Under the pieces are notes generated by a model, which saw only the letters and a program-made list of their open reading frames with translations, was not told the DNA's origin and did no database searches. The position numbers and the translations under genes were made by a program. From an uncultured virus (IMG/VR IMGVR_UViG_3300038314_001498) (lineage: Duplodnaviria > Heunggongvirae > Uroviricota > Caudoviricetes > Crassvirales), in the IMG/VR virus record IMGVR_UViG_3300038314_001498: a stretch of DNA of 64,000 nt. One strand, written 5' to 3'. Positions 6,852-57,120 of the stretch are shown here, piece after piece. Position 1 is the first letter of the stretch, and every line of letters begins with the position of its first letter.

Positions 6852-6967
6852 TTTTAAATTTTAATTAATACAGTTTTTTAGATGCAATTTTGTATAAACT
6901 CATGTCTTATGTATTGATTTTACTGGTATTATTGATATATAATAGTTGTATGCAATTTGTTTTTATG

Positions 6968-7111
6968 TCATTGCTTTAACCATTCTTTTGGTATTCTCAA
7001 ACAACTTTTACACATAGGTTTACTTCCGCAAGTAACACAAACAAACTGTTCACTTCGCTTACTTTTGTCTTTAAAATACATTGGTCTGTATCCATTAGGT
7101 TTATTTACCAT
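6968..7111 (-). CDS. 47 aa Cys-rich peptide (CxxC...CxxC) in the orphan cassette
   Basis: MVNKPNGYRP...CVTCGSKPMCKSCL, translated by eye. Confidence 0.45.
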   Translation of the reverse strand: MVNKPNGYRPMYFKDKSKRSEQFVCVTCGSKPMCKSCLRIPKEWLKQ

Positions 7112-7167
7112 AATTCAAAATTTATTTATTATTAATCGCTTCGTCATACAACAATGTATAACAAAAA

Positions 7168-7392
7168 TTAAAGTTTGTTTAATTCTTTATTTACGTCTTG
7201 GTAGTAATTAAATAATTCCAAACTTTTGTTGCTGTTTAATTGTATTAGTTCAACTTGTAGTATTTCTACACAAAGCAGAGCAGAAGTTAATGCTATTCTT
7301 TTTTTACCATATCCTTCAACTCTTGAAATCATAGTTTTACCATAAAAATCTCGGTACAACTGCTCTGCTTTTTCTTTCGGTTTTAATTCCAT
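7168..7392 (-). CDS. hypothetical phage protein inside an attC-like loop
   Basis: PKEKAEQLY...ALLCVE...YYQDVNKELNKL pattern; lies between the stem arms. Confidence 0.7.
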   Translation of the reverse strand: MELKPKEKAEQLYRDFYGKTMISRVEGYGKKRIALTSALLCVEILQVELIQLNSNKSLELFNYYQDVNKELNKL

Positions 7393-7485
7393 AATTATTG
7401 CTTATTTATCTTTAACTTTTGTTATACAAATCCGTTGTGAGTCATTGCACAAGTGACGTAAATCAGCCTTTTAAAATTTAGATGT

Positions 7486-20385: not shown

Positions 20386-20592
20386 ATGACTACATACAAA
20401 GAACAGCAAGAGAACAAAATGTCCTACGTCCTTTTAAAGGATTGTGAGGTACTTGGTACATTTGGCAACCTTAGAAAGGTTTGTGACTTTATGGAAGATG
20501 AGGATTTTCCAAGTTATTGGACATTAATAAGAAAAAAAGAAAATCCTTTAGTAATTAACGATTACAAGGTTTTTAAAGTTAAGCATTATTGA
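20386..20592 (+). CDS. small hypothetical IS passenger
   Basis: Divergent from the transposase; TAGCTTTG promoter motif upstream. Confidence 0.55.
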   Translation: MTTYKEQQENKMSYVLLKDCEVLGTFGNLRKVCDFMEDEDFPSYWTLIRKKENPLVINDYKVFKVKHY

Positions 20593-21167
20593 GCAGGTAT
20601 GTCGTTGTCAAGCTCTTCTAAATCATCTAACAAACTTGTTTGGTCTGGATTTTTACGCAATAACTTAATTGATTGTCTAGCTTGTGCTTTTAACTCATCA
20701 ACATAATCAAGAGTGAAAATATCTATTTCGTGATTGGCAAATTTCTCAAAATCTTTTAGGTTATGTGAAAATATAGCGTCGCACCCACTTGAAATAGCTA
20801 CTGAACAAATATTATAATCATTTATCATTTGGCACTTAGGTATGCCATTGCTACTAGCATAGCTTTTCGCATTCTTCTTAGATAGTTCTAATCTTAATTT
20901 TATGTATTTTCTTGCTGAAACTATATCGTGTTGTGCAATTTCAAAATTTGCGGTTATATAATCAAAAAACTCTTCTCTTTTTTCTTCATCTTCAACATTA
21001 CCTAATAATTCTGCAACAACCAAGCTTGGTATAACAATTAATATTTCACTTCTCTCAAAGTAATCGAATAAATATTCTGCTTTCTCCAACATATCTTCTT
21101 GACCTTTTGTACATTCCTTTTTGATGTACCATATAAGTATGTTAGTATCTACGCAGACTTTCTTCAT
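20586..21167 (-). CDS. PIN-domain (VapC-like) ribonuclease
   Basis: VCVDTNILIW, VVAELL, NDYNI, SHNLKDF. Confidence 0.9.
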   Translation of the reverse strand: MKKVCVDTNILIWYIKKECTKGQEDMLEKAEYLFDYFERSEILIVIPSLVVAELLGNVEDEEKREEFFDYITANFEIAQHDIVSARKYIKLRLELSKKNAKSYASSNGIPKCQMINDYNICSVAISSGCDAIFSHNLKDFEKFANHEIDIFTLDYVDELKAQARQSIKLLRKNPDQTSLLDDLEELDNDIPAQ

Positions 21168-28100: not shown

Positions 28101-30170
28101 TACAAAATTATCTATTGAACCATCTGTAAAAGTTCTTTCATTACCGTTCTCATCTATCTTATCGTTAAAATAACCAATTTCAATGATATTTTTAAATGTT
28201 CCTGATCCTAATTCTTCAAACCCCTCACCTGTAGCATCTTTGGTAAAATCCCAAGTTTCTTTACCTATACTTCTAATGATATTCCTATCAGATAAAGTCT
28301 TTAATTCGCTTTTACCTACACTTTGAGCTACACGCTTGCCTTTATTAACTAAGCGTATTTTACCAACGTAGCCTAAAGCTACTTCTGCAGCCGCAAATGC
28401 AGATGAAGCCATAACAATATCAAACTCTGTAAGCTTTCGTTTGTTAAGTATATTGTTTTTTTGTTTCTCTAATTGAGATATTTGTAAAGCGTTTAATTTA
28501 GATAATGCAATATCATCACTTAACGTTTTATTAATCTCTTCAAGTCGCTTTTTATCGTCTAAAATACCTTGTCGTATCTCTAAGGATTCACTAGCTTGTT
28601 GTGTAACACCAAAAGAAACAACGCCTGCTCCACCTAAAGAAAATTGATGCAACGTAGGTATATTTTCTATTGTAGAAGATACCATAAACTCAGCAAAATC
28701 AGCTACATTTTCTATATCCTTGACTTGTAGTTTTGGCTCTAATAAATCACGCTGTCTATTTGTTTCTTTTTTAAACTCTAGTGCGTCATCTAAAATCTCT
28801 TGCTTATTTGCTTTTAAAGCGTCTTCATTACCACCAAAAATATTTTCACCATTTACCAGGTTGTTTTTAAAGTTTCTGGCTTGGTATACAGCAGAATTAG
28901 CTACATCTGCATAACCTAGTTTTAAAATTTGTTTCTGGTTATCTAACCATTGATAACTTCGTTTTAGTAAATCTAATTCGTCATCAAACGTACTTATGTC
29001 TTCAAAATTATTCTCTATGTTTTGATAAAGGTCTTCTGCTTCATTTTGTATGGTTGAAATATCTGACTGATACTGATTGAAAAGAGATTCATTTTTTCGA
29101 CCTTCATTAATTAATTGTTCTCTTATTTCTGGGTCTTTTTCGGTTTCTAATGCTTTTGTTATCGCTTTTTGATTGTCTTCTAATCTGTATATTTTTTCAA
29201 TTAAAGCATTAGCCTCTAAAGCCTTTTGTTGTATTAATAGCTCATTATCTTTTATTGATTGATTTGCTCTAAAGTTTTCTTTTAGCTTTATATCTGCTAC
29301 TTTTTTTCGTAACTCTGGGTTATCTATTTTATTTAGATAATCTATGCGTTTTTGACGCTTTTTTTCTTTAATTAAATCATCTCTTTTAGATACTTTTCTT
29401 GTATCTTCCATGTTAAGATGATTCATTTTAACATTGTTCCACCAATTACTTAATATACCGTAATTGCCTTTTTGCTCATTAGCTATTTGGGTGTCGATTT
29501 CTTGAAGCTCTTCTTCACTAAGATTGTCTAAGTTAGAAAACTCATTGTAAGCGTCAATAACCTCTTTAGGTTGATCTTTAAGGTAGTTTAAATTAAATTG
29601 AGCGCGTTGCTCTGCTTGTTCTAAAGCATTTTTGTTTTTATCCTCAAATTGATAAAGTTCATTAATTGCATTAATGTTTCTATCTATTTCATTTTTATTT
29701 TCAGAAACAGAATTTTTTATAGTAGCATCTATATCATAAACAGGACCTTCAACTTGTTGTGTAGGCTCGTCTTCTTTTACGGTAGTAATATCTGTGGCAG
29801 CGTAATTGGGTGTTTGAGGGTCTGTTTTATTCTCTGGTGTAGCCAAAGAACCATCCGTGTCTTGGGCTTCCGATACCACATTTGTGTCGCTTGTAGTAGA
29901 TTGCGATTCGCTTTTTTTTTTTGGAGTATAGTCTAAAACAAATTTATTATCATCTACCAGGCTTTTAAATTGGTCTTCACCATACTTATTTTTTAAAACT
30001 GATTCTTCAACAATTAATCCATTTGGTGTTTTGTAAGTAGGTTCAGTAACCTCAGTTAACTTTCCGGAATTCACTAATTCTGTAAATTTGTCACCGTACT
30101 TTTCTTGTAATACATCACTACTAACAATTTTATTGTTAGGTGTTTTATATTTTTTTACTGGGTCTGGCAT
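22131..30170 (-). CDS. giant virion internal/ejection protein
   Basis: 2679 aa, coiled-coil rich, last of three consecutive internal-protein-like genes. Confidence 0.7.
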   Translation of the reverse strand: MPDPVKKYKTPNNKIVSSDVLQEKYGDKFTELVNSGKLTEVTEPTYKTPNGLIVEESVLKNKYGEDQFKSLVDDNKFVLDYTPKKKSESQSTTSDTNVVSEAQDTDGSLATPENKTDPQTPNYAATDITTVKEDEPTQQVEGPVYDIDATIKNSVSENKNEIDRNINAINELYQFEDKNKNALEQAEQRAQFNLNYLKDQPKEVIDAYNEFSNLDNLSEEELQEIDTQIANEQKGNYGILSNWWNNVKMNHLNMEDTRKVSKRDDLIKEKKRQKRIDYLNKIDNPELRKKVADIKLKENFRANQSIKDNELLIQQKALEANALIEKIYRLEDNQKAITKALETEKDPEIREQLINEGRKNESLFNQYQSDISTIQNEAEDLYQNIENNFEDISTFDDELDLLKRSYQWLDNQKQILKLGYADVANSAVYQARNFKNNLVNGENIFGGNEDALKANKQEILDDALEFKKETNRQRDLLEPKLQVKDIENVADFAEFMVSSTIENIPTLHQFSLGGAGVVSFGVTQQASESLEIRQGILDDKKRLEEINKTLSDDIALSKLNALQISQLEKQKNNILNKRKLTEFDIVMASSAFAAAEVALGYVGKIRLVNKGKRVAQSVGKSELKTLSDRNIIRSIGKETWDFTKDATGEGFEELGSGTFKNIIEIGYFNDKIDENGNERTFTDGSIDNFVGGFAVGANLSGSTKVFGNTAGIISDKNRRKTVSDNTIKALKLLEKVNDTSLPQSTRDAFEQKAKELFLENDAIINKTHEDWENLSKDEKEKIKSINTEIQGLNITKEKLKSESKVDEDMVSAVDSRLNQIESEKESIINKSKVEKENTTQEAKEETQPTVETTTPETEVKSEKDIEQPQEEIKTSEGIEDTPSPTVELNPENTFKTEDSKLTEKQEEDAEWQSVLGKPLSEIENRLNELEQQEKDVSEGKVEFGPFAEPREIRSTRAVVKKYQSEVSKEDAKRDFKDAFFGNPESYLSDGLKLRESVRVFIEQGGTFKELLSSVKNEFIQDGFSEQDAANVINRKLNAVKSRGLNETQAQGNTVTDGNLQPRVEPSVQQGQDNNTQPTVESTASKTKVEPKGLTENQDKQNKLVDARNAYNKLSKAKKKSPEGQSLLTTVNELSNDLGFKVGEKKGKLSVINNNGKEAGKIALKEQLPESSQSDIDHALSEIDKGVTLWNGDPLSPRVDLGLTRADIRKGEADLKAGKTNTVPAKRLVQALKEAKEKGEYEFIEGSGGKIQRTAVPLTQQLDSETELTVSELEEINQNQEVLAQEYDTWFNGLDETTQNEILEDYENNARTTSQDTKGRESQENVSNEKEAKPTKQERKEIAKAKVDEIVDAINGIDSIFGIKIKIDDVDGINKNGVDIVNLIASIAKQAIDAGIEIDEAIQKTIDYLKTKFSFDVDINEVKKKLQSKSPKNNFKRKPGKKSLANRVYTGKASPELQKTLEKHGLDYEVENQDQAKERAEAFVKSIGLDAAIDALKSGAIKPGAELAFIYSTVIDMMESQSDKATGKQKEKLQQDYAKLQEDIFVQFDNQAREFGRFLSALRKVYDSSYFKYNLSKQIEAHKARNGGEIDAETLAKFKERDAKLKEFEAKIKELETKLEQAEAQQAIDNIQEYNERQKPKPSRSSLKRAATALRKTKFTKSINDLSKLQNDPAGVIKGIWDGAVEIMATALDAGATLETAIKKGINHIKKSDWYKGLKPKNKKIVESKFREDVEGIVNSESIEDDVDVFIDEDGTIKIPAQVIRQLVANGINDIDVLAQTIIDEYLADEDVTLREVRDAITGYGKTINPTQDELSQEISRLKNLGRVLSGMEDVKQGQRPKRSGLQRRKKTDEERRKERELKEAMRDLPLDESDLESKWKTQLDTIKSRLKNQIRDLQEQIDNKERRKPDRQPIEYDQEAKDLIAERDALKQTLDNLVGAPELSYEQKVKLAESAVERSIEKLEESIRLNNLAFKEKTSVTSAKLEALRAKQKALKEELSKMREESGMLEKQQIERRKKAVEKRLKQLQEKRKNKDYSKKERKPLPEDAELRELQRQYRKEKELYDKEAYAEELRNMHPAKKLWKQFVNLLGLQRVLLATGEFSFVFLQNAVPTVNMALRNPVKLANIIAKTVKSYSNTKYEQDYAKMENSDLYDLAVEMRLALTRTNYKLEAKEEAFQSDMVTSAFKLLGQSLDFDGKKKLTLFDTVAKVLGISTKDKQRYSIGEQVENANPFAAMERFTSTYGNHIKMDLFAKGVRKLEAEGKNPIDHKEDYKRLSNAINTLTGRASLGRFDSISPELNALFFSVRFATSTFNKLNPFWYGVVLRDSENPGKPSVAQKMAISQMITYVATTTAFILAVQALGGEDDEGENIVQIETNPTSSDFGKLKIGNIRFDPWGGHMPWVNLISRMVSGEMKKSNGKTVNLGEGDNDTKFDKMVDFAVGKANPTVATGIRFLRASEEIDGVKRDKYGNEVSIEAELKKMYPIYWQGIQEVIKENPEKGKELSYALTALGMLGINNQVYGLGEKYQFKSYAKDVKSELSVKRNQFLRPNDKKVTDQKDLDANFNQFKTLHEQNYDELLDRIKKELGHMKFNDVYRMLKAGGHSEKDINRLLQGQYPEMIKIKDNSISKKLELIEARLKKGEEDKLDIMVKDVLKKAFYYNRKVDEYNYFLYTRGK

Positions 30171-32631: not shown

Positions 32632-32821
32632 AACGTATTTGGCTATGATTAGTAGCGTGAAATAGTAAATAACCTTAATAAATAAACGATGAAAAAAACA
32701 GACGAATATTACCAAGCATTAGAAGTTTGTAATAATGCTAAAGATTACCATAATATGGATGTAATGGTTGCAAGAACCTACGTAAGAGCGTATGATGAAG
32801 CTATTAATTATAGCCATTGTT
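32632..32821 (+). repeat. attC-like site 1
   Basis: GGCTATGATTAGTAGC / GCTATTAATTATAGCC arms. Confidence 0.85.
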
Positions 32822-32997
32822 GTAAAAGCGATAGCGAGCAGTTGGTTTGCGATGTAGATTATCTAAACAACTTTACTAAAGACACAAAATACTTATGTAA
32901 GCCTGACGGTAATAAACACTTTGAAGTAGAAGATGACTTTGGGTGTTTGTATAAAGTACATAGGAAATGTTTTAAAAAAAACAGAGTAGCAAACTAA
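32689..32997 (+). CDS. fusion-type ORF crossing the GTT at 32819
   Basis: Junction peptide EAINYSHCCKS. Confidence 0.65.
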   Translation: MKKTDEYYQALEVCNNAKDYHNMDVMVARTYVRAYDEAINYSHCCKSDSEQLVCDVDYLNNFTKDTKYLCKPDGNKHFEVEDDFGCLYKVHRKCFKKNRVAN

Positions 32998-33005
32998 TTG
33001 TTTAC

Positions 33006-33062
33006 AACGTACTTGTATAACTTATCGTTGTGAGGTACGAGCAATGGAAGTTATACGGTGTT
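33006..33062 (+). repeat. attC-like site 2 (57 bp, canonical size)
   Basis: GTATAACTT / AAGTTATAC arms. Confidence 0.85.
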
Positions 33063-33134
33063 ATTTGGCGAGGTACGAGCGAACTGTTTAACCCTTAAAA
33101 AAGGCGTGGCTTTTCAAAAGCCAAATTATAGATT

Positions 33135-33713
33135 ATGAGTGAAAAAAAATATAAAATTATTTACGCAGATCCAGCTTGGTCTTATAGAGATGGTTCTTTA
33201 AGTCGTGGTGGTGCAAAAAGGCATTATGATACAATGACCGATGAAGAAATTAAACAGTTACCTATAAATGATATAGCAGACGATGACAGTATTTTATTTA
33301 TGTGGGCAACATTTCCTAAAATACAAGAAGGATTAGATGTTATAAAATCTTGGGGATTTGAGTATAAAACAATAGGATTTGTATGGATTAAAACCAATAA
33401 GCGATTTAATAAAAATCAAACATCATTTATGCCTTTAGAAAGTCTTGATGTTTTTTGGGGAATGGGAAGATGGACAAGAAGTAATACAGAAATATGTTTA
33501 ATAGGCGTAAAAGGTAAACCTTTAAGAGAAAATGCAGATGTGCATAGTGTTGTAGTTTCTGAAATACAAAAGCATAGCAAAAAGCCAGACGAAATAAGAG
33601 ATATGATAGTTAGATTATGTGGCGATTTACCAAGAGTTGAACTATTTGCAAGAAATGAAACTAAAGGTTGGGATGTTTGGGGAAATGAGGTTGAAACAAG
33701 TATAGCAATATAG
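33135..33713 (+). CDS. MT-A70 family adenine methyltransferase (cassette)
   Basis: IIYADPAW, LFMWAT, WGFEYKT, HSKKPD, VELFAR. Confidence 0.9.
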   Translation: MSEKKYKIIYADPAWSYRDGSLSRGGAKRHYDTMTDEEIKQLPINDIADDDSILFMWATFPKIQEGLDVIKSWGFEYKTIGFVWIKTNKRFNKNQTSFMPLESLDVFWGMGRWTRSNTEICLIGVKGKPLRENADVHSVVVSEIQKHSKKPDEIRDMIVRLCGDLPRVELFARNETKGWDVWGNEVETSIAI

Positions 33714-33866
33714 CCTAAATATGCATTATACATTTGTGTATGGTGCGTTTTTATGGCACGTATGAGTGGTCGCCAATTTTTTAATAATTATTGCAACGGC
33801 TTGTGTATGGTTTGAAAGCCAACGCACAAACTCTGATTAAATGAACTAATATTAACTTGGCTTTTT

Positions 33867-34350
33867 AACGTTGAGCGTATGAAACGTAGCGTTTAGAAAA
33901 ACAGAAACTTTGAATAAAATACAGAATTAATAATAAAATTTTAGCGATGGAAATTACGGAAATTAAAAACATTGTAAATAGTGACTTACCAGACCAATAT
34001 AAAGAAAGGGCTTTATTAAAGGTGTTGGCAAAAGATGATGATATTATACCAAATATGTTAGAAATCTTAAAAATTGAACGAGAGACGAAAAAAGACTTAC
34101 TAACTGATATTAATCTTGAATTATCAAGAGCGCATTTATACATTGAAAGAGCAGACGTTAAAAAAGATGACAAGCAATTTAGCAAATCTTTTGTGTTGGA
34201 TGAAATAGCCTCTTTCTATGTTAAATACAAAGGAAGAATAAGCCATTGTTTTAATAGATTTAACTGAGCGGAAAGGCAATTTTATTATGAGCAAATACAC
34301 ACTTACTAACGTTTTAAGCACTTACATAGCTATGTTTTATACGCATTGTT
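33867..34350 (+). repeat. attC-like site 3 (whole gene in loop)
   Basis: GCGTATGAAACGTAGC / GCTATGTTTTATACGC arms. Confidence 0.85.
33947..34267 (+). CDS. hypothetical protein in attC-like loop
   Basis: 106 aa ORF between the arms. Confidence 0.65.
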   Translation: MEITEIKNIVNSDLPDQYKERALLKVLAKDDDIIPNMLEILKIERETKKDLLTDINLELSRAHLYIERADVKKDDKQFSKSFVLDEIASFYVKYKGRISHCFNRFN

Positions 34351-34404
34351 ATGTACTGGCGCAACTAACCGTTTTGAGTGCGTACAGATATTGCGCTTGT
34401 ACAT

Positions 34405-34521
34405 AACGTTAAACGTGTATGGCAAGTTGCCTTCACGGAATTTAATAAATACTTAAACAACTTTAGAATTATGAATACAAATAACAAAAAAACAGAAAAG
34501 CAATTTGCTATACACGGTGTT
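34405..34521 (+). repeat. attC-like site 4
   Basis: CGTGTATGGCAAGTTGC / GCAATTTGCTATACACG arms. Confidence 0.85.
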
Positions 34522-34707
34522 ATAAGCCGTTTATCTATGCAAGAAGTATTGAATTATGAAATACACTCACATTGGTTAGCGAGTTGGATTGGATTTGAAT
34601 GGGGGCAAGATTTAATGGGTAAATACTTCGCTTGGAAAGTAAGAAGAAAATACAATAGATATTTAGTTTCATTGGAAGAACGTAAGCGTGTTTTAAATGG
34701 CTTATAA
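34471..34707 (+). CDS. fusion-type ORF crossing the GTT at 34519
   Basis: ATG in the loop; junction KQFAIHGVISR; stop inside TAAC. Confidence 0.65.
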   Translation: MNTNNKKTEKQFAIHGVISRLSMQEVLNYEIHSHWLASWIGFEWGQDLMGKYFAWKVRRKYNRYLVSLEERKRVLNGL

Positions 34708-34906
34708 CGTACTAGCATAAAATTTGAAACGGAAAAATGAAACAATACATATTAAAATACACTATAAAACTTTGGTATAGAATGACCTTTGAAAATAACA
34801 AATACGCTAAACAACTATTTGAATTAATTGAAGGATTCTATGAAGTTACAGAAAACTATATTTCTTTAATAATACACAAAAGTAGTTTTTGATTTTATGC
34901 ATTGTT
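34706..34906 (+). repeat. attC-like site 5
   Basis: GCATAAAAT / ATTTTATGC arms. Confidence 0.8.
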
Positions 34907-34964
34907 ATGTTTTAGTTGCGCTCTAAAGCGTAACACTTGCGTACTAATTGGCGCAATTAAACAT

Positions 34965-35252
34965 AACGGTCTGCGTGTATGGGATGTGATTTGCAAATAA
35001 TAAAATAACATTGAATTAATAACTAAAAAAGAGAGCGATATGGAATTTGAACTACAATATGAATTACAAGAATTTAGAGAAATACAAGACCAATATTTTG
35101 ACGAAGATGGCAAGTGCTACAACCGACATATTTTAAGCACCGACATTGCGGAAAAAATGCTGAACTTAATTAACAATCTTAGCGAACGTGTAAATGAACT
35201 CGAACCTGTGATTAAGCAACAAATTAAAAAATCATTGCCTATACACGATGTT
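34965..35252 (+). repeat. attC-like site 6
   Basis: CGTGTATGGGATGTGATTT / AAATCATTGCCTATACACG arms. Confidence 0.8.
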
Positions 35253-35420
35253 ACCCAATGTTTGCCCTAAGATAGCAGAGAGTTTAAAGAATGGCAAAGA
35301 AATATGGGAATTACTAGACAAGAAAATACCAACATTTATAACTGGAACGAATTTAAGTATGAACGAGCTTTTTTCCTAGAAAAATTTATGGAAGATAGAA
35401 ATAGGGCAAATTTTGGGTAA
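35040..35420 (+). pseudogene. fusion-type ORF with an in-frame TAA at 35268-35270
   Basis: The frame stays open for 49 more codons to the TAA in GGGTAAC. Confidence 0.55.
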
Positions 35421-35702
35421 CGAAAAGTTTATGAATAGTGCGTGAAATAATAACTAAAATTAGTAAAAATGGAAAATAAGAAATGGTGGATTAAATTTAA
35501 AAATAGTAAATGGCGATTAATTGCTTTATGTGTAGGCTCTTTAGTAGTTGGAACACAAATGTTTTTAATACCAAAAACGGTAAGTGAAATTGTAATAAGA
35601 GGCATTGGTGTTCTATGGATATTAGAAGGCATTTCTTATTCTTTTGACTTATGGATTAGACACTTAAATAAGCGAAAAGAAGCATTATTTATAAACGGTG
35701 TT
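35419..35702 (+). repeat. attC-like site 7
   Basis: GTTTATGAATAGTGC / GCATTATTTATAAAC arms. Confidence 0.85.
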
Positions 35703-35852
35703 GTAGGTAGTTATAAAAGTAAACCTTATGCCGACTTATGTAAGTTAAGAAAAGAAAAGATTGAGGATTTGAAACGACTTGAAAAAGTAATGAAAGACAT
35801 TTGTGCAGACGTTGGCAAATATACCGACACTGGTGGTAATTACAAACCCTAA
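35469..35852 (+). CDS. fusion-type ORF: two-TM N-module plus coiled C-module
   Basis: Junction EALFINGVVGSY at GTT 35700. Confidence 0.65.
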   Translation: MENKKWWIKFKNSKWRLIALCVGSLVVGTQMFLIPKTVSEIVIRGIGVLWILEGISYSFDLWIRHLNKRKEALFINGVVGSYKSKPYADLCKLRKEKIEDLKRLEKVMKDICADVGKYTDTGGNYKP

Positions 35853-35860
35853 TTACCTAC

Positions 35861-35983
35861 AACGCAGTTGTGTATGGTATGTTGTGTATAAACAGACATA
35901 AATTATCGAATTAAAAACTAAATAAATTAATAATAACAAGCCTTTGAAATAGCAGTAATTAGCAATAGACTATACACGTTGTT
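35861..35983 (+). repeat. attC-like site 8
   Basis: GTGTATGGTATGTTG / CAATAGACTATACAC arms. Confidence 0.8.
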
Positions 35984-36021
35984 AACTACTGTGCGACATT
36001 GGAAAAACAAAAACTTAATAA

Positions 36022-36441
36022 ATGAAAAACTTACTTTGGTTAGACGACATTAGAAACCCTTTTTTAAATGAAGAAGGAAAAGTACCAACAGATAAAAATG
36101 GTGAATACTATAATATAAACTGGGTTTTAAATTACGATCAGTTTGTAAAATGGATAGAACTTTTCGGATTGCCTGATGCAATTTCTTTTGACCACGATTT
36201 AGCCGATGAACATTATACACCTGAATATTTTTGGGATAACTATGAAGAAAGTAAAAAGTTTCAAGAATGGCGTGGGCAAAATTACCAAGAGAAAACAGGT
36301 ATGGATTGTGCTAAATGGTTAGTAGATTATTGTATGGGTAACGAAAAGAAATTGCCTGAAATATTCGTACACTCTGCAAACCCAGTTGGTGCTGATAATA
36401 TAAAAGGGTTGTTAGATAACTTCATTAAGCATTGTAGTTAA
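36022..36441 (+). CDS. cyclic-phosphate-processing receiver-like domain protein (cassette)
   Basis: LLWLDDIR, ISFDHDL, TGMDCAKWL, VHSANPVG. Confidence 0.8.
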   Translation: MKNLLWLDDIRNPFLNEEGKVPTDKNGEYYNINWVLNYDQFVKWIELFGLPDAISFDHDLADEHYTPEYFWDNYEESKKFQEWRGQNYQEKTGMDCAKWLVDYCMGNEKKLPEIFVHSANPVGADNIKGLLDNFIKHCS

Positions 36442-36655
36442 CGGAATTGTATAAGATTAGTTACGTGAAATAAGCACAAACCAAAATAAATAAACGATGA
36501 AAAAGCCAAAAAATTTAACATTAAAAAACTATTGGGAAGCAAACAGTTCTTGGGAAAGACAAGAGATTGTAGAAAATACCTTTAAATATTTAAATTTTTT
36601 AGAACAAAAACTTAATAAATTAACCAACACTAAGTAATTAATTTTATACGGTGTT
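36440..36655 (+). repeat. attC-like site 9 (46 aa ORF 36497-36637 in loop)
   Basis: GTATAAGATTAGTTAC / GTAATTAATTTTATAC arms. Confidence 0.85.
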
Positions 36656-36722
36656 GGTTGGCGAAGCGGACTGTAATTATTAAAAAATTGGCGTTGCTGA
36701 GGCACGAAGCAAAATTAAGAGT

Positions 36723-37544
36723 ATGAGTAAGAAAAAAATAATAGGTTGGGTAAGTTGCGGAATTACAAGCGCAGTAGCTTGTAAACAAGCAATTATGAAA
36801 TACGGTAAAGACAAAATTGAACTTTACTATATGAAGATTGACAGCGCACACCCAGACAATGACAGGTTTTTAAAAGACCTTGAAAAATGGTATGATTTAC
36901 CAATAACCACAATTAGAAGCGATAAATACAAAGACCAATTTGAAGTTATAGAACATACTGGTTATGTAAATGGTGCTGAAGGTGCAAGATGTACTTTAGA
37001 GTTAAAGAAGAAAGTACGTTGGGGAATTGAAGAAAATATTGATTTCTCTGCTCAAATATTTGGATTTGAATTTGTACCAAAAGAAGTGAATAGAGCATTA
37101 CGATTTAATGAACAATACCCAAAAGCAAAAGCAATATTTCCATTAATTGAAACTTATCTAACAAAGGAAAATTGCGCTGAAATATTACGATTTGCAAACA
37201 TAGAATTACCAACGATGTACAAACTTGGTTATCCAAATAATAATTGTATTGGATGCGTAAAAGGTGGAATGGGTTATTGGAATAAAATACGTGTTGATTT
37301 CCCAGAACACTTTGATAAAATGGCAAAAGCTGAACGAGTTGCAGGATTTAGTTGTTTGAAAACCGAAAAAGAGGGAAGAATATTTTTAGATGAATTAAAC
37401 CCAAAAAGAGGAAGAAAGATGAAAGTTGTAATGCCAGACTGTGGAACTTATTGCGAGGTTGAATTTGAAGGAATAGAACACCCTATGTTAAAGAAAATAT
37501 TAGATAAGGAAGTAAATATTGAGCAATTAAGATTGGTTATCTAA
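36723..37544 (+). CDS. PAPS-reductase-like (PP-loop) phage protein (cassette)
   Basis: SCGITSA, ARCTLELKK, NNNCIGCVKGG motifs. Confidence 0.75.
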   Translation: MSKKKIIGWVSCGITSAVACKQAIMKYGKDKIELYYMKIDSAHPDNDRFLKDLEKWYDLPITTIRSDKYKDQFEVIEHTGYVNGAEGARCTLELKKKVRWGIEENIDFSAQIFGFEFVPKEVNRALRFNEQYPKAKAIFPLIETYLTKENCAEILRFANIELPTMYKLGYPNNNCIGCVKGGMGYWNKIRVDFPEHFDKMAKAERVAGFSCLKTEKEGRIFLDELNPKRGRKMKVVMPDCGTYCEVEFEGIEHPMLKKILDKEVNIEQLRLVI

Positions 37545-37820
37545 AGCCTAAATATGCAATATATACAGCCGTATATGGTGCGTTTTTATGGCGCGTATGA
37601 GTGGTCGCCAATTTTTTAATAATTATTGCAACCAACGTTTGCGTACATGAATAGTAGCCCTTAAAAAGACTGAACTTTGGTTAAGCATTTATAAGCAACT
37701 ATTTATTTTTTGAGGGTTGGCAAATGGCGATAGCCAAATATTTATAATATTATTAAATAAAACTTGTATATATCATATATATAATGTATATTTGAATATT
37801 ATTAAATAAAACTTAAAATT

Positions 37821-38042
37821 ATGACTACTCAAATTAAAGAAAGAATCAATCTTATTAACGAACAAATAATTGAATTAGGACAAGCTAAAGTTGCTTCTGA
37901 TAGAGGTATATCTCAAGTTAAAAAAGAGCAATTAGTTAAGGATATTGAAATGTTACACAACCTTAAACAAACTTTAGTTAAACTTTCTAAAAAGATGGTG
38001 TTATCTACAAGTGAATTAGAATTTGTAAAAGAGATATTATAA
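37821..38042 (+). CDS. hypothetical protein in attC-like loop
   Basis: Preceded by a TTG...TATATTTG Bacteroidota promoter (37764-37794). Confidence 0.65.
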   Translation: MTTQIKERINLINEQIIELGQAKVASDRGISQVKKEQLVKDIEMLHNLKQTLVKLSKKMVLSTSELEFVKEIL

Positions 38043-38182
38043 TGAGAAAGCTTATAGACATACCAGAAGAAGATAATACTCTTGAAAATTTACAGATACT
38101 AGCTATTAAAGCAAAAAAGGATTTGAAAAATTATATCCAAGATGTTTTAATTGAACACGCTAAAAAGGGTGGGGAAAAATAA
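38042..38182 (+). CDS. 46 aa RHH-like DNA-binding protein
   Basis: MRKLIDIPEE...LQILAIKAKKDLKNYIQDVL, translated by eye; coupled to the previous stop. Confidence 0.55.
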   Translation: MRKLIDIPEEDNTLENLQILAIKAKKDLKNYIQDVLIEHAKKGGEK

Positions 38183-38309
38183 GTAGTTGCGTTGCTGATA
38201 AGACCGAACCATTGATAAAGCACTTACTTAGGCTATTATTTATGTACGGTGTTAGTAACTGGCGGTTTAATACCCGCCAGAGTGAGTTACCGTAAAACCG
38301 CTTGTTACT

Positions 38310-38503
38310 AACGTTAACGTGTAACAGTAGTAGTGTGAAATAATAACTTAAATTAACAAAAATGAAAAAACCAAAAATTACAGATTTTATTAAAGAAACA
38401 ATTGCCAACCCAAGTATTGAGTTGATGTACTTAAAAGACTATGTAAAAGAATTAGAAGCTTATGTAGATAAACAAGAAGAAGCTATTACTGTTACACATT
38501 GTT
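38310..38503 (+). repeat. attC-like site 11
   Basis: GTGTAACAGTAGTAG / CTATTACTGTTACAC arms. Confidence 0.85.
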
Positions 38504-38658
38504 GTGCACAGTTGCCGACTTTTGATGAAAGTAATTTAAATAAAAACGAATACGCTGATGATGTGCAAAAAACAATACACAATAACCTTTGTAAACCATC
38601 TTATAAGATTGGGTGGCAAAACTGCTATGCTTGGCTAAAACAAGAACTAAAGAAGTAA
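38362..38658 (+). CDS. fusion-type ORF crossing the GTT at 38501
   Basis: Junction EAITVTHCCAQL. Confidence 0.65.
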   Translation: MKKPKITDFIKETIANPSIELMYLKDYVKELEAYVDKQEEAITVTHCCAQLPTFDESNLNKNEYADDVQKTIHNNLCKPSYKIGWQNCYAWLKQELKK

Positions 38659-38671
38659 GGCAATTGTTTAC

Positions 38672-38876
38672 AACGGTATGCAGATATGAATAGATTTTTT
38701 AACGATTAAACACAAAACAAATGAACGAATTAGAACAGATTTTTACAGAAATGCTAAACCATATAGACGACCATAAGGAATCATACGATAAGTCACAATG
38801 GACAAATGAAGCTATTGTTAAGACTTGGATAAAGACTAACGAAAGTAAGTTGAAAAATTTATTTATATCTGGTGTT
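38672..38876 (+). repeat. attC-like site 12
   Basis: CAGATATGAATAGATTTTT / AAAAATTTATTTATATCTG arms. Confidence 0.85.
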
Positions 38877-39041
38877 ACAAACTGTGCGATTCTTGAAACT
38901 ATGCATCAGCAAGTATTCACAGAATTTCACAACCTTAGAAAGCAAAAAGGAAACGCAAGGTATATACAAATAGATGGCAAAGAAGCAAATGAGATTATTA
39001 GACTTGGTAAGTTAGCGACTAAAAAAGAGCATTGTTTGTAA
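38721..39041 (+). CDS. fusion-type ORF crossing the GTT at 38874
   Basis: Junction NLFISGVTNCA; stop inside TAAC. Confidence 0.65.
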   Translation: MNELEQIFTEMLNHIDDHKESYDKSQWTNEAIVKTWIKTNESKLKNLFISGVTNCAILETMHQQVFTEFHNLRKQKGNARYIQIDGKEANEIIRLGKLATKKEHCL

Positions 39042-39162
39042 CGGCTATTGTATGAGTAGTAGCCGATTAGAATCACAGAAGTATCGAATTAGAAATTAAC
39101 TTAATAAATAGTAATAGTTTTAAAACCAAGCACTGCAACGGCTATTACTTATACAAATTGTT
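39040..39162 (+). repeat. attC-like site 13
   Basis: TTGTATGAGTAGTAGCCG / CGGCTATTACTTATACAA arms. Confidence 0.85.
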
Positions 39163-39180
39163 GTAGTGCGTTATTTAGCG

Positions 39181-39555
39181 ATGGAAACAGCAGAAATTAA
39201 AAAAACCGTATTAGAAATAAGAAAAAAAGCAATTAATGTTGCTTGTGCTTTAAAAGGATTTAAAGAAGAAGATTGTTATGAAACGGTTTTTGAAGAAGAT
39301 GAGATTGAGGTAGTTTTTTCTTGGAATAGTGGGTGTAGTTGTTGTTCTGATGAGGAACAAAGAGTTTACGTGAAATACGAAGAATTAACGCAAGACATTG
39401 AGGCTCTTAAAAAAGAAAAAGAACAACAACGTATAGAAGAAAAAAGAAAGAAGGATGAGGCAGAAAAGTTAAGAAAGCAAAAAGAAGCTGATGCCAAGAA
39501 AAAACGGGAAGAAGCAGAATATTTAAGATTAAAGAAGAAGTTTGAAAGTGCGTAG
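39181..39555 (+). CDS. hypothetical coiled-coil protein (cassette)
   Basis: ATG at 39181, in frame with the GTT at 39160; ends EYLRLKKKFE. Confidence 0.65.
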   Translation: METAEIKKTVLEIRKKAINVACALKGFKEEDCYETVFEEDEIEVVFSWNSGCSCCSDEEQRVYVKYEELTQDIEALKKEKEQQRIEEKRKKDEAEKLRKQKEADAKKKREEAEYLRLKKKFESA

Positions 39556-39568
39556 GCTAATGCACTAC

Positions 39569-40050
39569 AACGGACAAGCATAAGAGCAGTGCGTGATTAA
39601 GCACAGAACTAAATTAATATTAACAAGCCTTTCCGCTTCTTTTTCTTTTGAGCGTGGGCAAAAAACCAAAATTATGGACTTAAAAATTAGAGAAGATGCC
39701 TACAAAATGGCAATTGAAAAATGGGGTGCAAAAGCACAATTGGAAATGGCACAAGAAGAAGCTACTGAACTTGCACTTGCCGTTAGAAAACACATTCGTA
39801 AAAATGATGAAACCAGCTTTAGCAACTTGGTTGAAGAAATTGCAGACGTTGAAATTATGATTGAGCAAATTGTAATGATGCATAATGATTTTGGTTTTAG
39901 GCAAATGGTAGATGCACAAAAAGCATTTAAGATTAGTAGACTACTTAAACGGATGAACGAGAACTCTTTTGAAGCGTTGGAAAAAGAAAAAGAAGCTACC
40001 GAGTAGTTTGCAAATAGACACGACACTAAGCATTGCTTTTATGCAGTGTT
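39569..40050 (+). repeat. attC-like site 14 (MazG-like gene in loop)
   Basis: GCATAAGAGCAGTGC / GCATTGCTTTTATGC arms. Confidence 0.85.
39674..40006 (+). CDS. MazG-like NTP pyrophosphohydrolase
   Basis: AQEEATELALA...LVEEIADVEIMIEQ. Confidence 0.8.
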   Translation: MDLKIREDAYKMAIEKWGAKAQLEMAQEEATELALAVRKHIRKNDETSFSNLVEEIADVEIMIEQIVMMHNDFGFRQMVDAQKAFKISRLLKRMNENSFEALEKEKEATE

Positions 40051-40073
40051 GTAGTGTCGTTTTAATGCACTAC

Positions 40074-40144
40074 AACGTAAAAGCATATGGTTTCGGTTGC
40101 CTTAACCGTACTAATGCTTCGGCAACTGAACTATATGCGGTGTT
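40074..40144 (+). repeat. attC-like site 15 (71 bp)
   Basis: GCATATGGTTTCGGTTGCC / GGCAACTGAACTATATGC arms. Confidence 0.85.
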
Positions 40145-40223
40145 GGTTGGCGCAGCGGACTGTAATTATTAAAAAATTGGCGTGCCTGACGTTAGGAAGG
40201 CAAATTACGTAATACTTTTAAAA

Positions 40224-40472
40224 ATGAAATCACTATTTAAAGAAATACAAGAAGAACATTTACCATCTGGTATTAAAGAAATGATGGCTTATGCACTTTA
40301 CGAAAACAAAAACAAACTTCAAGCTGTTTTAAATTATCTAAAAAAGGAAAATGCTAAAAATAAAAGTTCAAATATCAAAAACTCAATAGACCACTTAAAT
40401 TACATACTAAAAGAATATTATCACGATACAAAATCATTTAAAGATGGACAAAAAGAACATTTATCTAACTGA
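40224..40472 (+). CDS. hypothetical protein (cassette)
   Basis: ATG at 40224. Confidence 0.55.
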   Translation: MKSLFKEIQEEHLPSGIKEMMAYALYENKNKLQAVLNYLKKENAKNKSSNIKNSIDHLNYILKEYYHDTKSFKDGQKEHLSN

Positions 40473-40704
40473 AAGTTTAAGCGGATTAATGGCGGGTGAA
40501 AGGATTAAAGCTAATAGTTTTAAAGAAGCTGAAAATAAATGCCCTGATGGGTATAGAGTTATTGGTAAGTTTATATGTGAAATAAACGCTCCTGAATTTG
40601 ACAATATAAACTTGAATTAGCAAATATGATTTATATGCAGCCGTATATGAAGCGTTTTTGCTTGCGTTTGAGTGGTCGCCAATTTTTTAATAATTATTGC
40701 AACC

Positions 40705-40957
40705 AACGTATTTGTATAACCGTTGTTACGTGAATTAAAAACTTAAAATTATAAAAATGAACGAAAGACAAAACAAAATAGCAAAAAGAGCAGATAAACT
40801 GCAAGAAGATTTACAAAGTATAATTAATGTAGGGAAAAAAGTAAAAGGTAGTGAAGCTCATTACATTGATTTTGTAACTGCCTTTTTTATACACAGAATA
40901 GCTGCACTAGAAATTGAATTAGAAAACCTAAAAAAGTAATAACGGTTATACATTGTT
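40705..40957 (+). repeat. attC-like site 16
   Basis: GTATAACCGTTGTTAC / GTAATAACGGTTATAC arms. Confidence 0.85.
40757..40939 (+). CDS. hypothetical protein in attC-like loop
   Basis: Stop codon lies in the right arm. Confidence 0.6.
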   Translation: MNERQNKIAKRADKLQEDLQSIINVGKKVKGSEAHYIDFVTAFFIHRIAALEIELENLKK

Positions 40958-40983
40958 GTATGACGAAGTGAACAGTAAAAATT

Positions 40984-41163
40984 ATGGAATTAGAAACAAT
41001 AATAACAAAAGATAAAGAGCAATTTTTACAAAAAGAAAAACCTTGGTTTCATTGGCGAAGTTTTAAAGCATTTAGAAAATTTATGGAAGAAGATGCTGTT
41101 GAGTGTAAAAATTGTGGGACTTGGTATTGGGAAGGATGTAATAAGAGATGTGATTGCAAATAA
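40984..41163 (+). CDS. 59 aa Cys-rich protein (cassette)
   Basis: ...VECKNCGTWYWEGCNKRCDCK, translated by eye. Confidence 0.55.
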   Translation: MELETIITKDKEQFLQKEKPWFHWRSFKAFRKFMEEDAVECKNCGTWYWEGCNKRCDCK

Positions 41164-41177
41164 TTTTTATTGCATAC

Positions 41178-41305
41178 AACGTTTAGTATAAGAATAGTAG
41201 CCGAGCAAACAGGTAAAAAAATTGAGTTAAACAAATAATTAATAAGTAAGTAAGTAATAGCCTCTAAAAAGACCTATAACAAGGCTATTATTTTTATACA
41301 TTGTT
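41178..41305 (+). repeat. attC-like site 17
   Basis: GTATAAGAATAGTAGCC / GGCTATTATTTTTATAC arms. Confidence 0.85.
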
Positions 41306-41321
41306 ATAGGGCGTTTTTATT

Positions 41322-41537
41322 ATGAAGTACATAAATGTAAACAAAATAATTGCTGCCGATATTTTAGAACCTTATGAAAATAGCGGTGAAAGTTGGGATA
41401 TTGGAAGTACAAGAGGATGGCAAGTTTCATTTTTATTAGGATATAGAGAAGGCTATCCAGAATGGATTTTAGTAGATAAAGAAACTAAAGAAGATTGTAT
41501 AAAACTTATTGAATCGTTTGGGTTAAATGCCCTATAA
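41322..41537 (+). CDS. hypothetical protein (cassette)
   Basis: Fills GTTATAGGGCGTTT...AAATGCCCTATAAC; stop inside TAAC. Confidence 0.65.
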   Translation: MKYINVNKIIAADILEPYENSGESWDIGSTRGWQVSFLLGYREGYPEWILVDKETKEDCIKLIESFGLNAL

Positions 41538-41658
41538 CGGTTTTGTATAAGCGCAGTAGCGGATTTTATGCAACTGCTATTCGGTTAAAATGAAACTTAA
41601 ATATAAACAAAAACGGTTCAAGTTTGCACCTGAACCGCTATTGCGTTTATACCATGTT
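41536..41658 (+). repeat. attC-like site 18
   Basis: GTATAAGCGCAGTAGCGG / CCGCTATTGCGTTTATAC arms. Confidence 0.85.
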
Positions 41659-41866
41659 ATGCCATGTCATCTCTCTTCCATATTTTTTTAATTAATGGTT
41701 TCATAATATGAACATTTAAAATATAAGTTATGGGTGTACATATTACAATACCGATTAAATACCATATCAGATTATTTGCGGTACAACCGTGAATGATAAA
41801 TGTAAATAATAGAATAACACAAGTTTGGAAGAAGGCATTTTTCAGTTCTAACCACCTAATTCGCAT
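41657..41866 (-). CDS. small two-TM protein (possible immunity protein)
   Basis: Overlaps the end of the Gly-zipper gene; stop inside minus-strand TAAC. Confidence 0.55.
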   Translation of the reverse strand: MRIRWLELKNAFFQTCVILLFTFIIHGCTANNLIWYLIGIVICTPITYILNVHIMKPLIKKIWKRDDMA

Positions 41867-42618
41867 CGAACACCTTCTTCAACCGCGCCAACAACAGCAC
41901 CTCGTACCATGCCAACTATCATACCACCCATGCATCCGGCCGCAACAGACCCAGGGTTAAAACCTAAAAATGCACCAGTAATGCAGCCACGAACAAAACC
42001 TTGTGCTGCACCGAATAACGCTCCCCAAGCGGCACCTTTAACTGCTCTGTCGGCACAATTATCCTTTTGATAAACTCTAAGAGTATAATAGTCATAAATC
42101 CCATCAAAAGCAGCTATAACTGGCATAAATCTTTCTTCTAGTTGTTCATTTGAATTTGAAATAGCATTAAGAAAATTTTCTTTTTCTGTATCGAAATATA
42201 GCATAAAACCATCCAAATCGTCTCGGTTGTAATAATCAAGAGTTTTGGTTAAAAATTCTTTTTCAAGTTCTGAAATATTCATATTCTCAATCTCTTGTTC
42301 GCTGAGAAAAGTTACCATTTCTTGGTTATAAACTGTTGCTACTTCTGGTGATGATTCGTACAAAGAAGTTTCGAACAATTCGAAAACATCATTGGAAATT
42401 GCTTCATTTGTAGGTATAGATTTATAGTCTAAATTTTCGGAAGCAAGCAGGTTATTATACAAATTTGTTTTTATAACCTCATAAATATTGTTACTTTTAG
42501 TAAGATGACTTTGTTGGAATTTACTATTGTCATTTGCAATATCATCTTCACTACAACTATTAAATGTAAGTGCCATAAAGAACATTAAAAACGGCACGTA
42601 TTTCCCAAATTGTTTCAT
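41848..42618 (-). CDS. lipoprotein with a C-terminal glycine-zipper (bacteriocin-like) domain
   Basis: Signal peptide plus SCSEDD lipobox; GAAWGALFGAAQG...GGMIVGMVRGAVVGA. Confidence 0.7.
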   Translation of the reverse strand: MKQFGKYVPFLMFFMALTFNSCSEDDIANDNSKFQQSHLTKSNNIYEVIKTNLYNNLLASENLDYKSIPTNEAISNDVFELFETSLYESSPEVATVYNQEMVTFLSEQEIENMNISELEKEFLTKTLDYYNRDDLDGFMLYFDTEKENFLNAISNSNEQLEERFMPVIAAFDGIYDYYTLRVYQKDNCADRAVKGAAWGALFGAAQGFVRGCITGAFLGFNPGSVAAGCMGGMIVGMVRGAVVGAVEEGVRCELGG

Positions 42619-42923: not shown

Positions 42924-43724
42924 ATGTGCAATTCAAAAAACATAAGTGTTGTTTTAAAAGAGTTTGAACAATTACTACAGCTAAAATACTCTGGTAGAAC
43001 ACCTGCAAACTATCTTTATCATGTAAAACTATTTTTAAACTATTCTGATAACGTTCCGTTAAGAGTAAATAATGAGGATATACTTAATTACAATATATCA
43101 ATAAGAAATAAAAGCAATAGTTTTAGAAACGTGGCTATAAATGCTATAAAGTCTTATTTTAAGTTGTACCTTAGAAAGCAAGTTAAAGGTTTTAGTTCCA
43201 TTAGACCACCAAAAGAATACAAAAAGCCAAAAGTATATGATTGTTATATTTTAAGTGAAAAGATACAAAATATAGAAAACAAAAAACACAAGGCAATACT
43301 AGCTTTATCTCTTTGCTGTTGGCTCAGAAAATCCGAACTTTTAAATATAAAAATATCGGATATTAATGGTAGCTTAATGACGTTGAAAATAAACCAATCA
43401 AAAGGCTGTAAAGATAGAGTTGTTATTATAAGTGAAAACACAATTAATATTTTAAGAGAATATCATAAAGAATACAAACCAAAAGAATATTTATTTGAAG
43501 GGTTAAATGGTGGTAAATATAGCTCTACGAGTGTAGATAAAATAACTAAGAAGTATCTTTATAAAGACATGAGATTTCATTCATTAAGGGCTTCAGGTGC
43601 TACATTTGCATTAAGTAACGGAACAGATCTAAAAACAGTTTCTAAAATACTAGGTCACAAACACATTCAAACAACGGAATATTACATTCCTATACTTTAT
43701 AAAACTATTAAACAAGCGATATGA
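42924..43724 (+). CDS. compact tyrosine recombinase (integron-integrase/XerD-like)
   Basis: YS.RT..NY N-domain; LRKSE, SKGCKDR, FHSLRAS, LGHK, TTEYY catalytic set; no arm-binding domain. Confidence 0.9.
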   Translation: MCNSKNISVVLKEFEQLLQLKYSGRTPANYLYHVKLFLNYSDNVPLRVNNEDILNYNISIRNKSNSFRNVAINAIKSYFKLYLRKQVKGFSSIRPPKEYKKPKVYDCYILSEKIQNIENKKHKAILALSLCCWLRKSELLNIKISDINGSLMTLKINQSKGCKDRVVIISENTINILREYHKEYKPKEYLFEGLNGGKYSSTSVDKITKKYLYKDMRFHSLRASGATFALSNGTDLKTVSKILGHKHIQTTEYYIPILYKTIKQAI

Positions 43725-56970: not shown

Positions 56971-57120
56971 TGCTAGTTAATTACTGTTTGCAATATTTTA
57001 CCTTAACCATTGTATGTCGTTGACCAAAATTTTAATCCCTAGCTACGCAACGACTTCATAGCCAAAAACGTTACACCAAAAATAATACTTTTTTATACTA
57101 ATTCCTAATAAATATGATTT

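Follow-up and report, generated by a model that had tools for sequence, protein, structure and literature searches.

A probable integron-like hairpin array in an uncultured Crassvirales phage, with front and back halves of small proteins re-paired at the hairpin junctions

Can a recombination site carry the beginning of a gene whose end lies in the next cassette? This question is raised by a stretch of 64,000 nucleotides (nt) (here, the window) from an uncultured virus of the Crassvirales (IMG/VR record IMGVR_UViG_3300038314_001498), in which 18 co-oriented hairpins on the plus strand, alternating with 17 intervening segments, occupy the region from 32.6 to 41.7 kb. Six open reading frames (ORFs A to F) start in the loop of such a hairpin and end in the segment that follows it. 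An earlier note on this DNA, made from the sequence alone, had proposed that loop-encoded front halves and start-less back halves are re-paired at each recombination, with the GTT at the right end of the hairpin as the crossover, in a protein-diversifying system rather than simple gene capture. This interpretation is partly supported by our analysis: the re-pairing of halves at the junction is borne out, while the designation of GTT as the crossover and the exclusion of gene capture are not. On balance, the locus is probably an integron-like array of cassettes, such as Flavobacteriia phages carry, in which units are exchanged at AAC and GTT triplets and two-part proteins are thereby built.

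Each site consists of AACG, a gap of 5 to 6 nt, a stem, a loop, the complementary stem, a gap of 2 to 3 nt, and TGTT. A strict scan (AACG, a 5- to 6-nt gap, a stem of at least 8 pairs whose complement lies 30 to 320 nt on, a 2- to 3-nt gap, and GTT) found 16 plus-strand sites, of which 15 fall within 32632-41656, and 3 minus-strand sites. Such numbers are far above chance expectation: the same scan of shuffled windows gave 1.65 sites per window with both strands combined. When longer spans were allowed, three extra sites with scores of 27 to 33 were found, which enclose whole genes (hairpins 3, 10, and 14) and bring the array to its total of 18. Only the high scorers of this wider scan were counted, because at its low cutoff shuffled windows also yield 2 to 10 matches. 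The left AAC and the right GTT are present in 18/18 sites, and the hairpins span 54 to 617 nt. Six loops are empty, six hold a whole small ORF or gene, and six hold the start and front half of an ORF; the segments contain whole genes, start-less back halves, or just a small hairpin. No ORF crosses the AAC, and the left triplet reads TAAC, thus containing a stop codon, at 9 of the 18 sites.

The six junction-crossing ORFs are as the earlier note described them. All start in the attC-like loop, between a left arm with YAACG and its complementary right arm with TGTT, and cross the right arm and the GTT, which is read as Val in four cases, whereas TGT-TGT is read as Cys-Cys in two. ORF A (32689..32997, 102 amino acids [aa], junction YSHCC/KS, the slash marking the end of the site) takes its start and a 43-codon front half from hairpin 1 (32632..32821), and ORF B (34471..34707, 78 aa, IHGV/IS) takes its start and first 16 codons from hairpin 4 (34405..34521). 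ORF C (35040..35270, 76 aa, IHDV/TQ) has 70 of its 76 codons in hairpin 6 (34965..35252) and extends just 6 codons beyond the GTT. The front of ORF D (35469..35852, 127 aa, INGV/VG) is a membrane-like stretch of 77 codons in hairpin 7 (35419..35702), while the fronts of ORF E (38362..38658, 98 aa, VTHCC/AQ) and ORF F (38721..39041, 106 aa, ISGV/TN) lie in hairpin 11 (38310..38503) and hairpin 12 (38672..38876), respectively. All of these features are on the plus strand, and all six hairpins were found by the strict scan. As the note also stated, the frame of the ORF at 39181 is open back to 39124, through the GTT at 39160 of hairpin 13 (39040..39162, plus strand, strict scan), whose loop holds no ORF. 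That only two frames are used at the junctions is true of these ORFs but is weak evidence with six of them ([2/3]^6 = 0.09); a stop within 3 codons of the junction closes the third frame at 6/18 sites, versus 2/18 and 3/18 for the two used frames. As a side observation, the right arm of hairpin 6 contains GATGTT, whose ATG shares bases with the GTT and starts an ORF of 43 aa in the following segment (35248-35379), so that here the start codon is encoded by the junction.

It could be argued that the read-through ORFs are not real genes and that AT-rich DNA has by accident left the frame open across the arms. They are known from sequence alone, and none of them matches a Pfam or PHROG family. 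However, beyond the junction, the back halves stay open nearly as far as the next AAC, over 50 to 62 codons, a length reached by only 14 to 53 of 5,000 shuffles per segment. Moreover, both halves are conserved as protein across many metagenomes, and depositors annotated equivalent read-through genes in phages phi12:1, JQ, P12002L, Freya, and Danklef. We therefore regard such accidents as a highly improbable explanation. The back halves of ORFs A and E contain no Met at all. A structure model of ORF E was poor (predicted local distance difference test [pLDDT] score, 57.8), and that of ORF F was moderate (pLDDT, 70.6), with a helical front, nonhelical residues 47-54 around the junction, and a helical back.

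The evidence that halves are re-paired comes from protein comparisons. For 4/4 ORFs tested (A, E, F, and D), homology stops at the junction residues in every alignment, and relatives keep one half, often at 80 to 98% identity, fused to an unrelated other half. ORF A has 16 non-self matches, of which 12 share only the N-terminal half, 4 share only the C-terminal half, and none shares both. The 12 front-sharing proteins are mostly more than 90% identical to ORF A in that half and carry back halves of at least nine kinds (judged by eye), and the 4 back-sharing proteins have it behind four unrelated front halves. Among the 10 matches of ORF E, 4 are N only, 4 are C only, and 2 have both. In one protein (P0023), an ORF A-type junction is joined to the ORF E back half, and the two right arms have just about 9 identical bases. 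The front of ORF F is found in all of its 20 matches and the back in 2; the other 18 show about 14 different back halves (judged by eye). For ORF D, 42 representatives at the 50% clustering level comprise 31 N-only matches, mostly stand-alone proteins of 59 to 78 aa, 8 C-only matches, in which the shared part is the C terminus of other proteins, 1 with both halves, and 2 others. Taking ORFs A, E, and F together, front and back are joined in 4 of 38 front-sharing matches, and 34 of the 38 have a different back half; the close relatives P0018, P0019, P0028, and P0029 retain the N- and C-terminal halves together.

Comparisons of DNA reveal the units that are exchanged. Hairpin 1 (32632-32824) recurs at 93% identity in three metagenome loci (L014, L015, and L016, two of which are alike), in which neither flank is related and a two-base change preserves the pairing of the arms. 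Likewise, hairpin 12 as a whole is shared at 86% identity with a further locus (L021), whose flanks are unrelated. Conversely, a segment is shared alone at the other end of the window. Outside the array stands an isolated hairpin of this kind (7150..7436, minus strand), whose loop holds a 74-aa ORF, and the segment after it (6945..7160, minus strand), which ends in CAAC with no hairpin beyond it, is 90% identical to positions 334-550 of L021, the homology ending exactly after the AAC. Related sites also exist in cultured phages. The loop of hairpin 9 (36440..36655, plus strand) contains a 46-aa ORF that stops just short of the right arm; this loop is 92.8 to 95.8% identical in Cellulophaga phage phi12:1, where the same front half lacks a stop and continues into a back half of 86 aa (gp5). 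The 21-nt loop of hairpin 2 (33006..33062, plus strand), a short site of 54 nt without an ORF found by the strict scan, is identical in a hairpin of Polaribacter phage P12002L. That phage has the same AACG...TGTT hairpins beside methylase genes, and one of its annotated ORFs reads through the GTT of its hairpin. Hairpin 8 (35861..35983, plus strand, no ORF) is about 71% conserved in Tenacibaculum phage JQ and Polaribacter phage Danklef_1, with the conservation ending at AACG and CGTTGTT. Because hairpins and segments are each shared alone, both AAC and GTT are exchange points, and the single interval is the unit. Exchange boundaries thus occur at both triplets, and the singling out of GTT as "the crossover" is not supported; the polarity of the sites would in fact put the canonical cut at the left AAC (see below).

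Nor does the array stand apart from simple gene capture, since it also carries whole genes, both in loops and between hairpins. Those in segments include genes for an MT-A70 methylase, a cREC_REC protein, and a 3'-phosphoadenosine-5'-phosphosulfate (PAPS) reductase. As for the loops, hairpin 3 (33867..34350; wider scan, score 29) encloses a whole ORF (33947..34267), hairpin 10 (37634..38253; wider scan, score 33) encloses two whole ORFs, and hairpin 14 (39569..40050; wider scan) encloses a gene for a nucleoside triphosphate (NTP) pyrophosphohydrolase. Smaller ORFs lie wholly in the loops of hairpin 5 (34706..34906; 51 aa) and hairpin 16 (40705..40957; 60 aa), and no ORF is present in hairpin 15 (40074..40144, a short site), hairpin 17 (41178..41305), or hairpin 18 (41536..41658), the last of the array; these five were found by the strict scan, and all eight are on the plus strand. 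Three whole-gene segments end in a 71-nt repeat (33727-33797, 37562-37632, and 40633-40703), which is terminator-like and then reads TTGCAAC. About 20 nt of this repeat are complementary to a conserved leader just past the GTT in two of those segments (36640-36700 and 40129-40189); by eye, the pairing of repeat and leader makes a long-range stem around gene cassettes of 0.6 to 1 kb.

The stems themselves are strongly patterned. The inner stems of the 15 sites examined comprise 206 Watson-Crick pairs and 26 others, namely, 22 G.T pairs with G always on the 5' arm, 1 T.G, 2 C.A, and 1 A.G. The G.T pairs occur at fixed positions, beside the triplet and about 7 and about 12 pairs into the stem. 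A G after AAC and a T before GTT are found in 15/15 sites, so that AACG faces TGTT, and between relatives the pairing of the arms is preserved by compensatory changes. In addition, the bases just past each GTT pair with the bases just ahead of the next AAC, that is, the two ends of one segment form an outer stem. At least 5 contiguous pairs abut the triplets in 16/17 segments, and the mean score is 16.0, versus 2.9 for 289 mismatched pairs of segment ends and likewise 2.9 when the flanks of a single hairpin are compared with each other. The outer stems contain 11 G.T and no A.C pairs. Calculated arm stability is higher for the coding than for the noncoding strand in 18/18 hairpins with RNA parameters and in 17/18 with DNA parameters. 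With inner stems in the hairpins and own-segment stems between them, each triplet-to-triplet interval is therefore closed by a stem of its own. If a hairpin were circularized together with a neighboring segment, their stems would stack and form a single long structure resembling attC.

The comparisons show the anatomy of the sites, the covariation, the exchange boundaries, and the many pairings of N and C halves. They suggest a scheme with AAC and GTT as two connectors, each interval between them being a self-contained unit closed by its stem. Both kinds of unit, hairpin and segment, would have been exchanged between phages at the triplets over evolutionary time. The AAC connector, with its frequent TAAC stop, ends reading frames, and the GTT connector can be read through; where a loop supplies the start and front half and the next segment a start-less back half, exchange at GTT would build a two-part protein. 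The exchange may be the work of a tyrosine recombinase that acts site-specifically on folded single strands, either a Xer-like candidate encoded just after the array (42924..43724, plus strand) or an enzyme supplied in trans by another phage or the host, and both strands, or both hairpin ends, would presumably be usable. The products are possibly small early proteins for host takeover or counter-defense. In its most specific form, namely, a hairpin-guided assembly system with two connectors, in which intervals are independently mobile, GTT is kept in frame, and the Xer-like recombinase drives exchange on folded single strands at either hairpin end, this scheme is put forward as a tentative proposal that falls short of being probable.

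The candidate enzyme is a tyrosine recombinase of 266 aa, whose gene lies 1.3 kb past the final hairpin and shares the strand of the cassettes. It matches archaeal XerA/XerC-like proteins best (the XerA model, below that model's cutoff, and PDB 4a8e). It falls below the cutoff of both integron-integrase models (TIGR02249, 82.9 bits versus a cutoff of 265, in two stretches). Its alignment to VchIntIA (PDB 2a3v) covers only recombinase residues 15-181 and 213-258, with 31 versus 79 residues between these stretches, and the catalytic motifs are present. An orthologue of 46% identity is found at the same end of a small-gene array in the unrelated Polaribacter phage Freya_10. Relatives in viral contigs (L005 to L008) have no usable upstream DNA and hence no array context. 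Three of these contigs (L006, L007, and L008), which encode 57%-identical recombinases, all end about 150 to 170 nt upstream of the gene, which may mean that assembly breaks at a repeat-rich array. Between array and recombinase lies a minus-strand ORF of 256 aa (41848-42618) with a lipoprotein-like N terminus, a glycine-rich zipper-like C terminus, and no family match.

Several points weigh against an integron-like array. No recombination event or enzyme activity was seen in this sequence analysis. With loops of up to 617 nt, the sites greatly exceed the known sizes of attC, and the bulged bases of attC are missing. The recombinase is about 48 residues shorter than VchIntIA at the place of the integron-specific insert, and it lies at the 3' end of the array, not divergently at the 5' end as in integrons. 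It is absent from P12002L, JQ, and phi12:1 and a broken remnant in Danklef_1 (3 of 5 records with none and 1 with a remnant). The sense-strand bias in pairing fits a function in mRNA equally well. A further difficulty is polarity. Integron integrases cut the folded strand in its 5' arm. Four class 1 integron attC sites, representing two sequence types, have an A or C after AAC, a C before GTT, and gaps of 5 and 6 nt when read on the sense strand. It is thus the bottom strand of class 1 attC that shows AACG (4/4), TGTT (3/4), and the longer gap on the 5' side; in the phage, the coding strand shows them. The bottom strand is described as recombined about 1,000 times better by integron integrases (PMC8946536). 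Given this flipped polarity, a cut of the integron type would be expected at the left AAC, past the preceding stop codon and outside the ORFs, which weakens "ORFs read through the crossover," the heading of the earlier note, as a mechanistic statement. Canonical integron chemistry cuts one hairpin end and so gives no account of exchange at both. Re-pairing at GTT, unexplained by that chemistry, would need both strands, a different enzyme, or a separate process of cargo coupling.

Two other explanations have to be weighed in this light. If integron logic holds with flipped polarity, the coding strand recombines, the cut AA/C falls in the left arm, the cassette is a hairpin plus the segment that follows it, and a two-part ORF never spans the crossover; new pairings of N and C halves would then arise through a slower process that couples a lineage's attC type to new cargo. 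Chromosomal integrons, with their near-identical repeats, offer a parallel for such coupling. The bottom-strand features on the coding strand, the preference of integrases for that strand, the stop codons in or just ahead of the left triplet, and the four close relatives that keep both halves together all speak for this alternative. Yet the halves are together in just the 4 of 38 front-sharing matches, hairpins at 86 to 96% identity have unrelated sequence on both sides in 4/4 independent comparisons, and a segment alone is shared at 90%. It is therefore the single interval, not the hairpin-segment pair, that behaves as a unit, and we consider this alternative unlikely.

Somewhat less unlikely, though still not favored, is that the hairpins are RNA elements of polycistronic early transcripts, placed around each cistron or start region and with roles, for example, in processing, stability, or translation control, and that exchange is a by-product of general or relaxed single-strand-annealing recombination between these short elements, much as in the promoter early stem-loops (PeSLs) described for T4-type phages (PMC2839356 and PMC4122927). 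Such a role would fit the sense-strand bias (22 G.T versus 2 C.A pairs in the inner stems, 11 versus 0 A.C in the outer stems), the co-orientation of all sites with genes in every phage inspected, the RecT encoded by Freya and Danklef, and the occurrence of arrays without any recombinase gene. A contig of 1,082 nt from an RNA library (38325-39406) bridges hairpins 12 and 13; it is not proof of transcription, because an RNA library can hold DNA. On the other hand, the fixed positions of the G.T pairs are unlike the scattered pattern of tolerated drift, and the exchange boundaries lie at triplets with about 3 to 10 identical bases, which is short for homologous recombination. An Rfam search of the array gave two sub-threshold chance matches only and no family. 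In addition, one of two tested attC sites of P12002L is reported to be recombined by IntI1 (Qi et al. 2023, PMC9892861), and these sites appear to be members of the hairpin family described here.

Two further ideas were discarded. A reading as invertible promoters was set aside, as the two arms have gaps of unequal length and no variant in inverted orientation was seen. Hairpin promoters of a virion RNA polymerase were dropped: early transcripts are described as lacking a common motif in a preprint on phi14:2, and the same sites exist in unrelated siphoviruses. When contigs from four public runs were aligned to the array, there were no informative joints, and contig ends fall at repeats; a single contig, with a 23-nt side, showed one skip of 82 nt inside the loop of hairpin 17. 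The lack of variants in this material proves nothing, because these are contigs.

Compared with integrons and clusters of attC sites lacking integron-integrases (CALINs), the integron-like array shares co-oriented cassettes between imperfect palindromes with AAC and GTT in 18/18 sites, sequence that varies while structure is kept, a variable loop, and cargo that includes DNA methylases. It also shares outer (R) and inner (L) stems with an unpaired spacer (5 to 6 nt on the 5' side and 2 to 3 nt on the 3' side), the outer stem being supplied by the cassette's own other end. The reported P12002L sites appear to be part of the same family of hairpins. With its clustered sites and no intI nearby, the array is a candidate CALIN; its long-loop sites have no match in Rfam. 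The differences are as follows. The loops carry gene starts or whole genes. An attC site is roughly 57 to 141 bp long, whereas 11 of the 18 spans here exceed 141 nt. In place of extrahelical bases, the stems are ungapped with fixed G.T pairs (C.A on the other strand), and no bulges are needed; the gaps are 5 to 6 versus 2 to 3 nt, the polarity relative to genes is flipped, and exchange occurs at both hairpin ends. The neighboring recombinase is Xer-like without the additional domain specific to the IntI family, and it lies downstream on the cassette strand rather than as a divergent 5' intI. Neither an attI site nor a common promoter was seen at the array, although no sequence search was aimed at attI.

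Other systems are also comparable. In the R64 shufflon (Rci/PilV), a tyrosine recombinase and short repeats give one front end alternative C-terminal segments, but shufflons invert within one locus around one constant N part, whereas in the phage array a large variety of both front and back halves moves between genomes, with no inversion seen. In polymorphic toxins and other proteins of this build, a conserved front half is combined with many unrelated back halves, which are swapped by homologous recombination in the conserved coding region; they have neither a hairpin site at the junction nor a front half exchanged as a separate unit, both of which are present here. PeSLs are likewise described as short conserved stem-loops among small nonessential early genes that mediate modular shuffling in phage genomes. 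However, these regulatory cassettes are promoter-terminator units between whole genes and are exchanged by homology, whereas the hairpins of the array surround gene starts, bear conserved triplets with a gap of fixed asymmetry, and divide proteins in frame. Neither element of a PeSL, an early promoter or a terminator stem-loop, is enriched in the array: 41 sigma-70-type promoters were found versus 50 expected, in a scan that excludes promoters of the Bacteroidota type, and 6 terminators were found versus 4.5 expected.

Clusters of attC sites without an integrase have already been reported in phages, including two sites in the related Polaribacter phage P12002L (Qi et al. 2023, PMC9892861). A term search of the main text of that paper gave no mention of ORFs crossing the sites, and neither in-frame re-pairing of half proteins nor ORFs starting in site loops were found in our literature searches. 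The system is best classified among integron-like cassette arrays, as a phage variant with long coding loops, flipped polarity, exchange at both ends, and a Xer-like enzyme.

Cassettes of the integron type are usually viewed as whole promoter-less genes, each followed by a short recombination site. The phage site, in contrast, carries a translation start and the first 16 to 77 codons with the connector in frame; thus, the unit of exchange is half a protein. The different back halves in 34 of 38 relatives from three front-half families suggest that early proteins of the phages diversify rapidly by new combinations, with host defenses as their plausible targets. The array also bears on the question of how the recombination sites of integrons become attached to new cargo. 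If assembly by two connectors is true, it would be a natural machine for shuffling protein parts and a tractable model for the coupling of site and cargo in integron-type sites, and the relatives are cultured, genetically accessible phage-host pairs of Cellulophaga, Polaribacter, and Tenacibaculum.

The setting of the array is the early-gene region of a marine flavobacterial phage with a crAss-like backbone. The window is AT rich (GC content, about 32%) and encodes a crAss-type muzzle protein, a protein of 2,679 aa, and other large proteins on the minus strand; the array sits within a run of small plus-strand genes from 32.3 to 41.7 kb. The closest named DNA matches of the window are phages of Cellulophaga, Polaribacter, Tenacibaculum, and Nonlabens. 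A megablast search of the structural genes of the window against phages gave no matches, nor did a tblastn search with ORF F. The nearest virus record (G001) has nothing useful in common with the array. Alignment-based scans of viral contigs returned nothing (scan A6), only L020 (A8), or only L020 and L021 (A9); L020 is a copy of the same phage, and another locus (L013) is an identical piece of the 74.6-kb metagenome contig from which the window comes. A weaker site of the same pattern, with a 10-pair stem, lies between structural genes (56954-57072, minus strand). The 2,679-aa protein (22131-30170, minus strand) has no Pfam match at all and occupies the position of the giant virion protein of crAss-like phages. 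Finally, the left third of the window contains a second integrase-like protein (423 aa), an IS1595-family transposase, NYN and PIN nucleases, and Rha/antirepressor and helix-turn-helix (HTH) genes (5580-6851, 19352-20290, 18589-19221, and 20586-21167, all on the minus strand), a group that resembles a lysogeny or mobile-element module on a crAss-like backbone.

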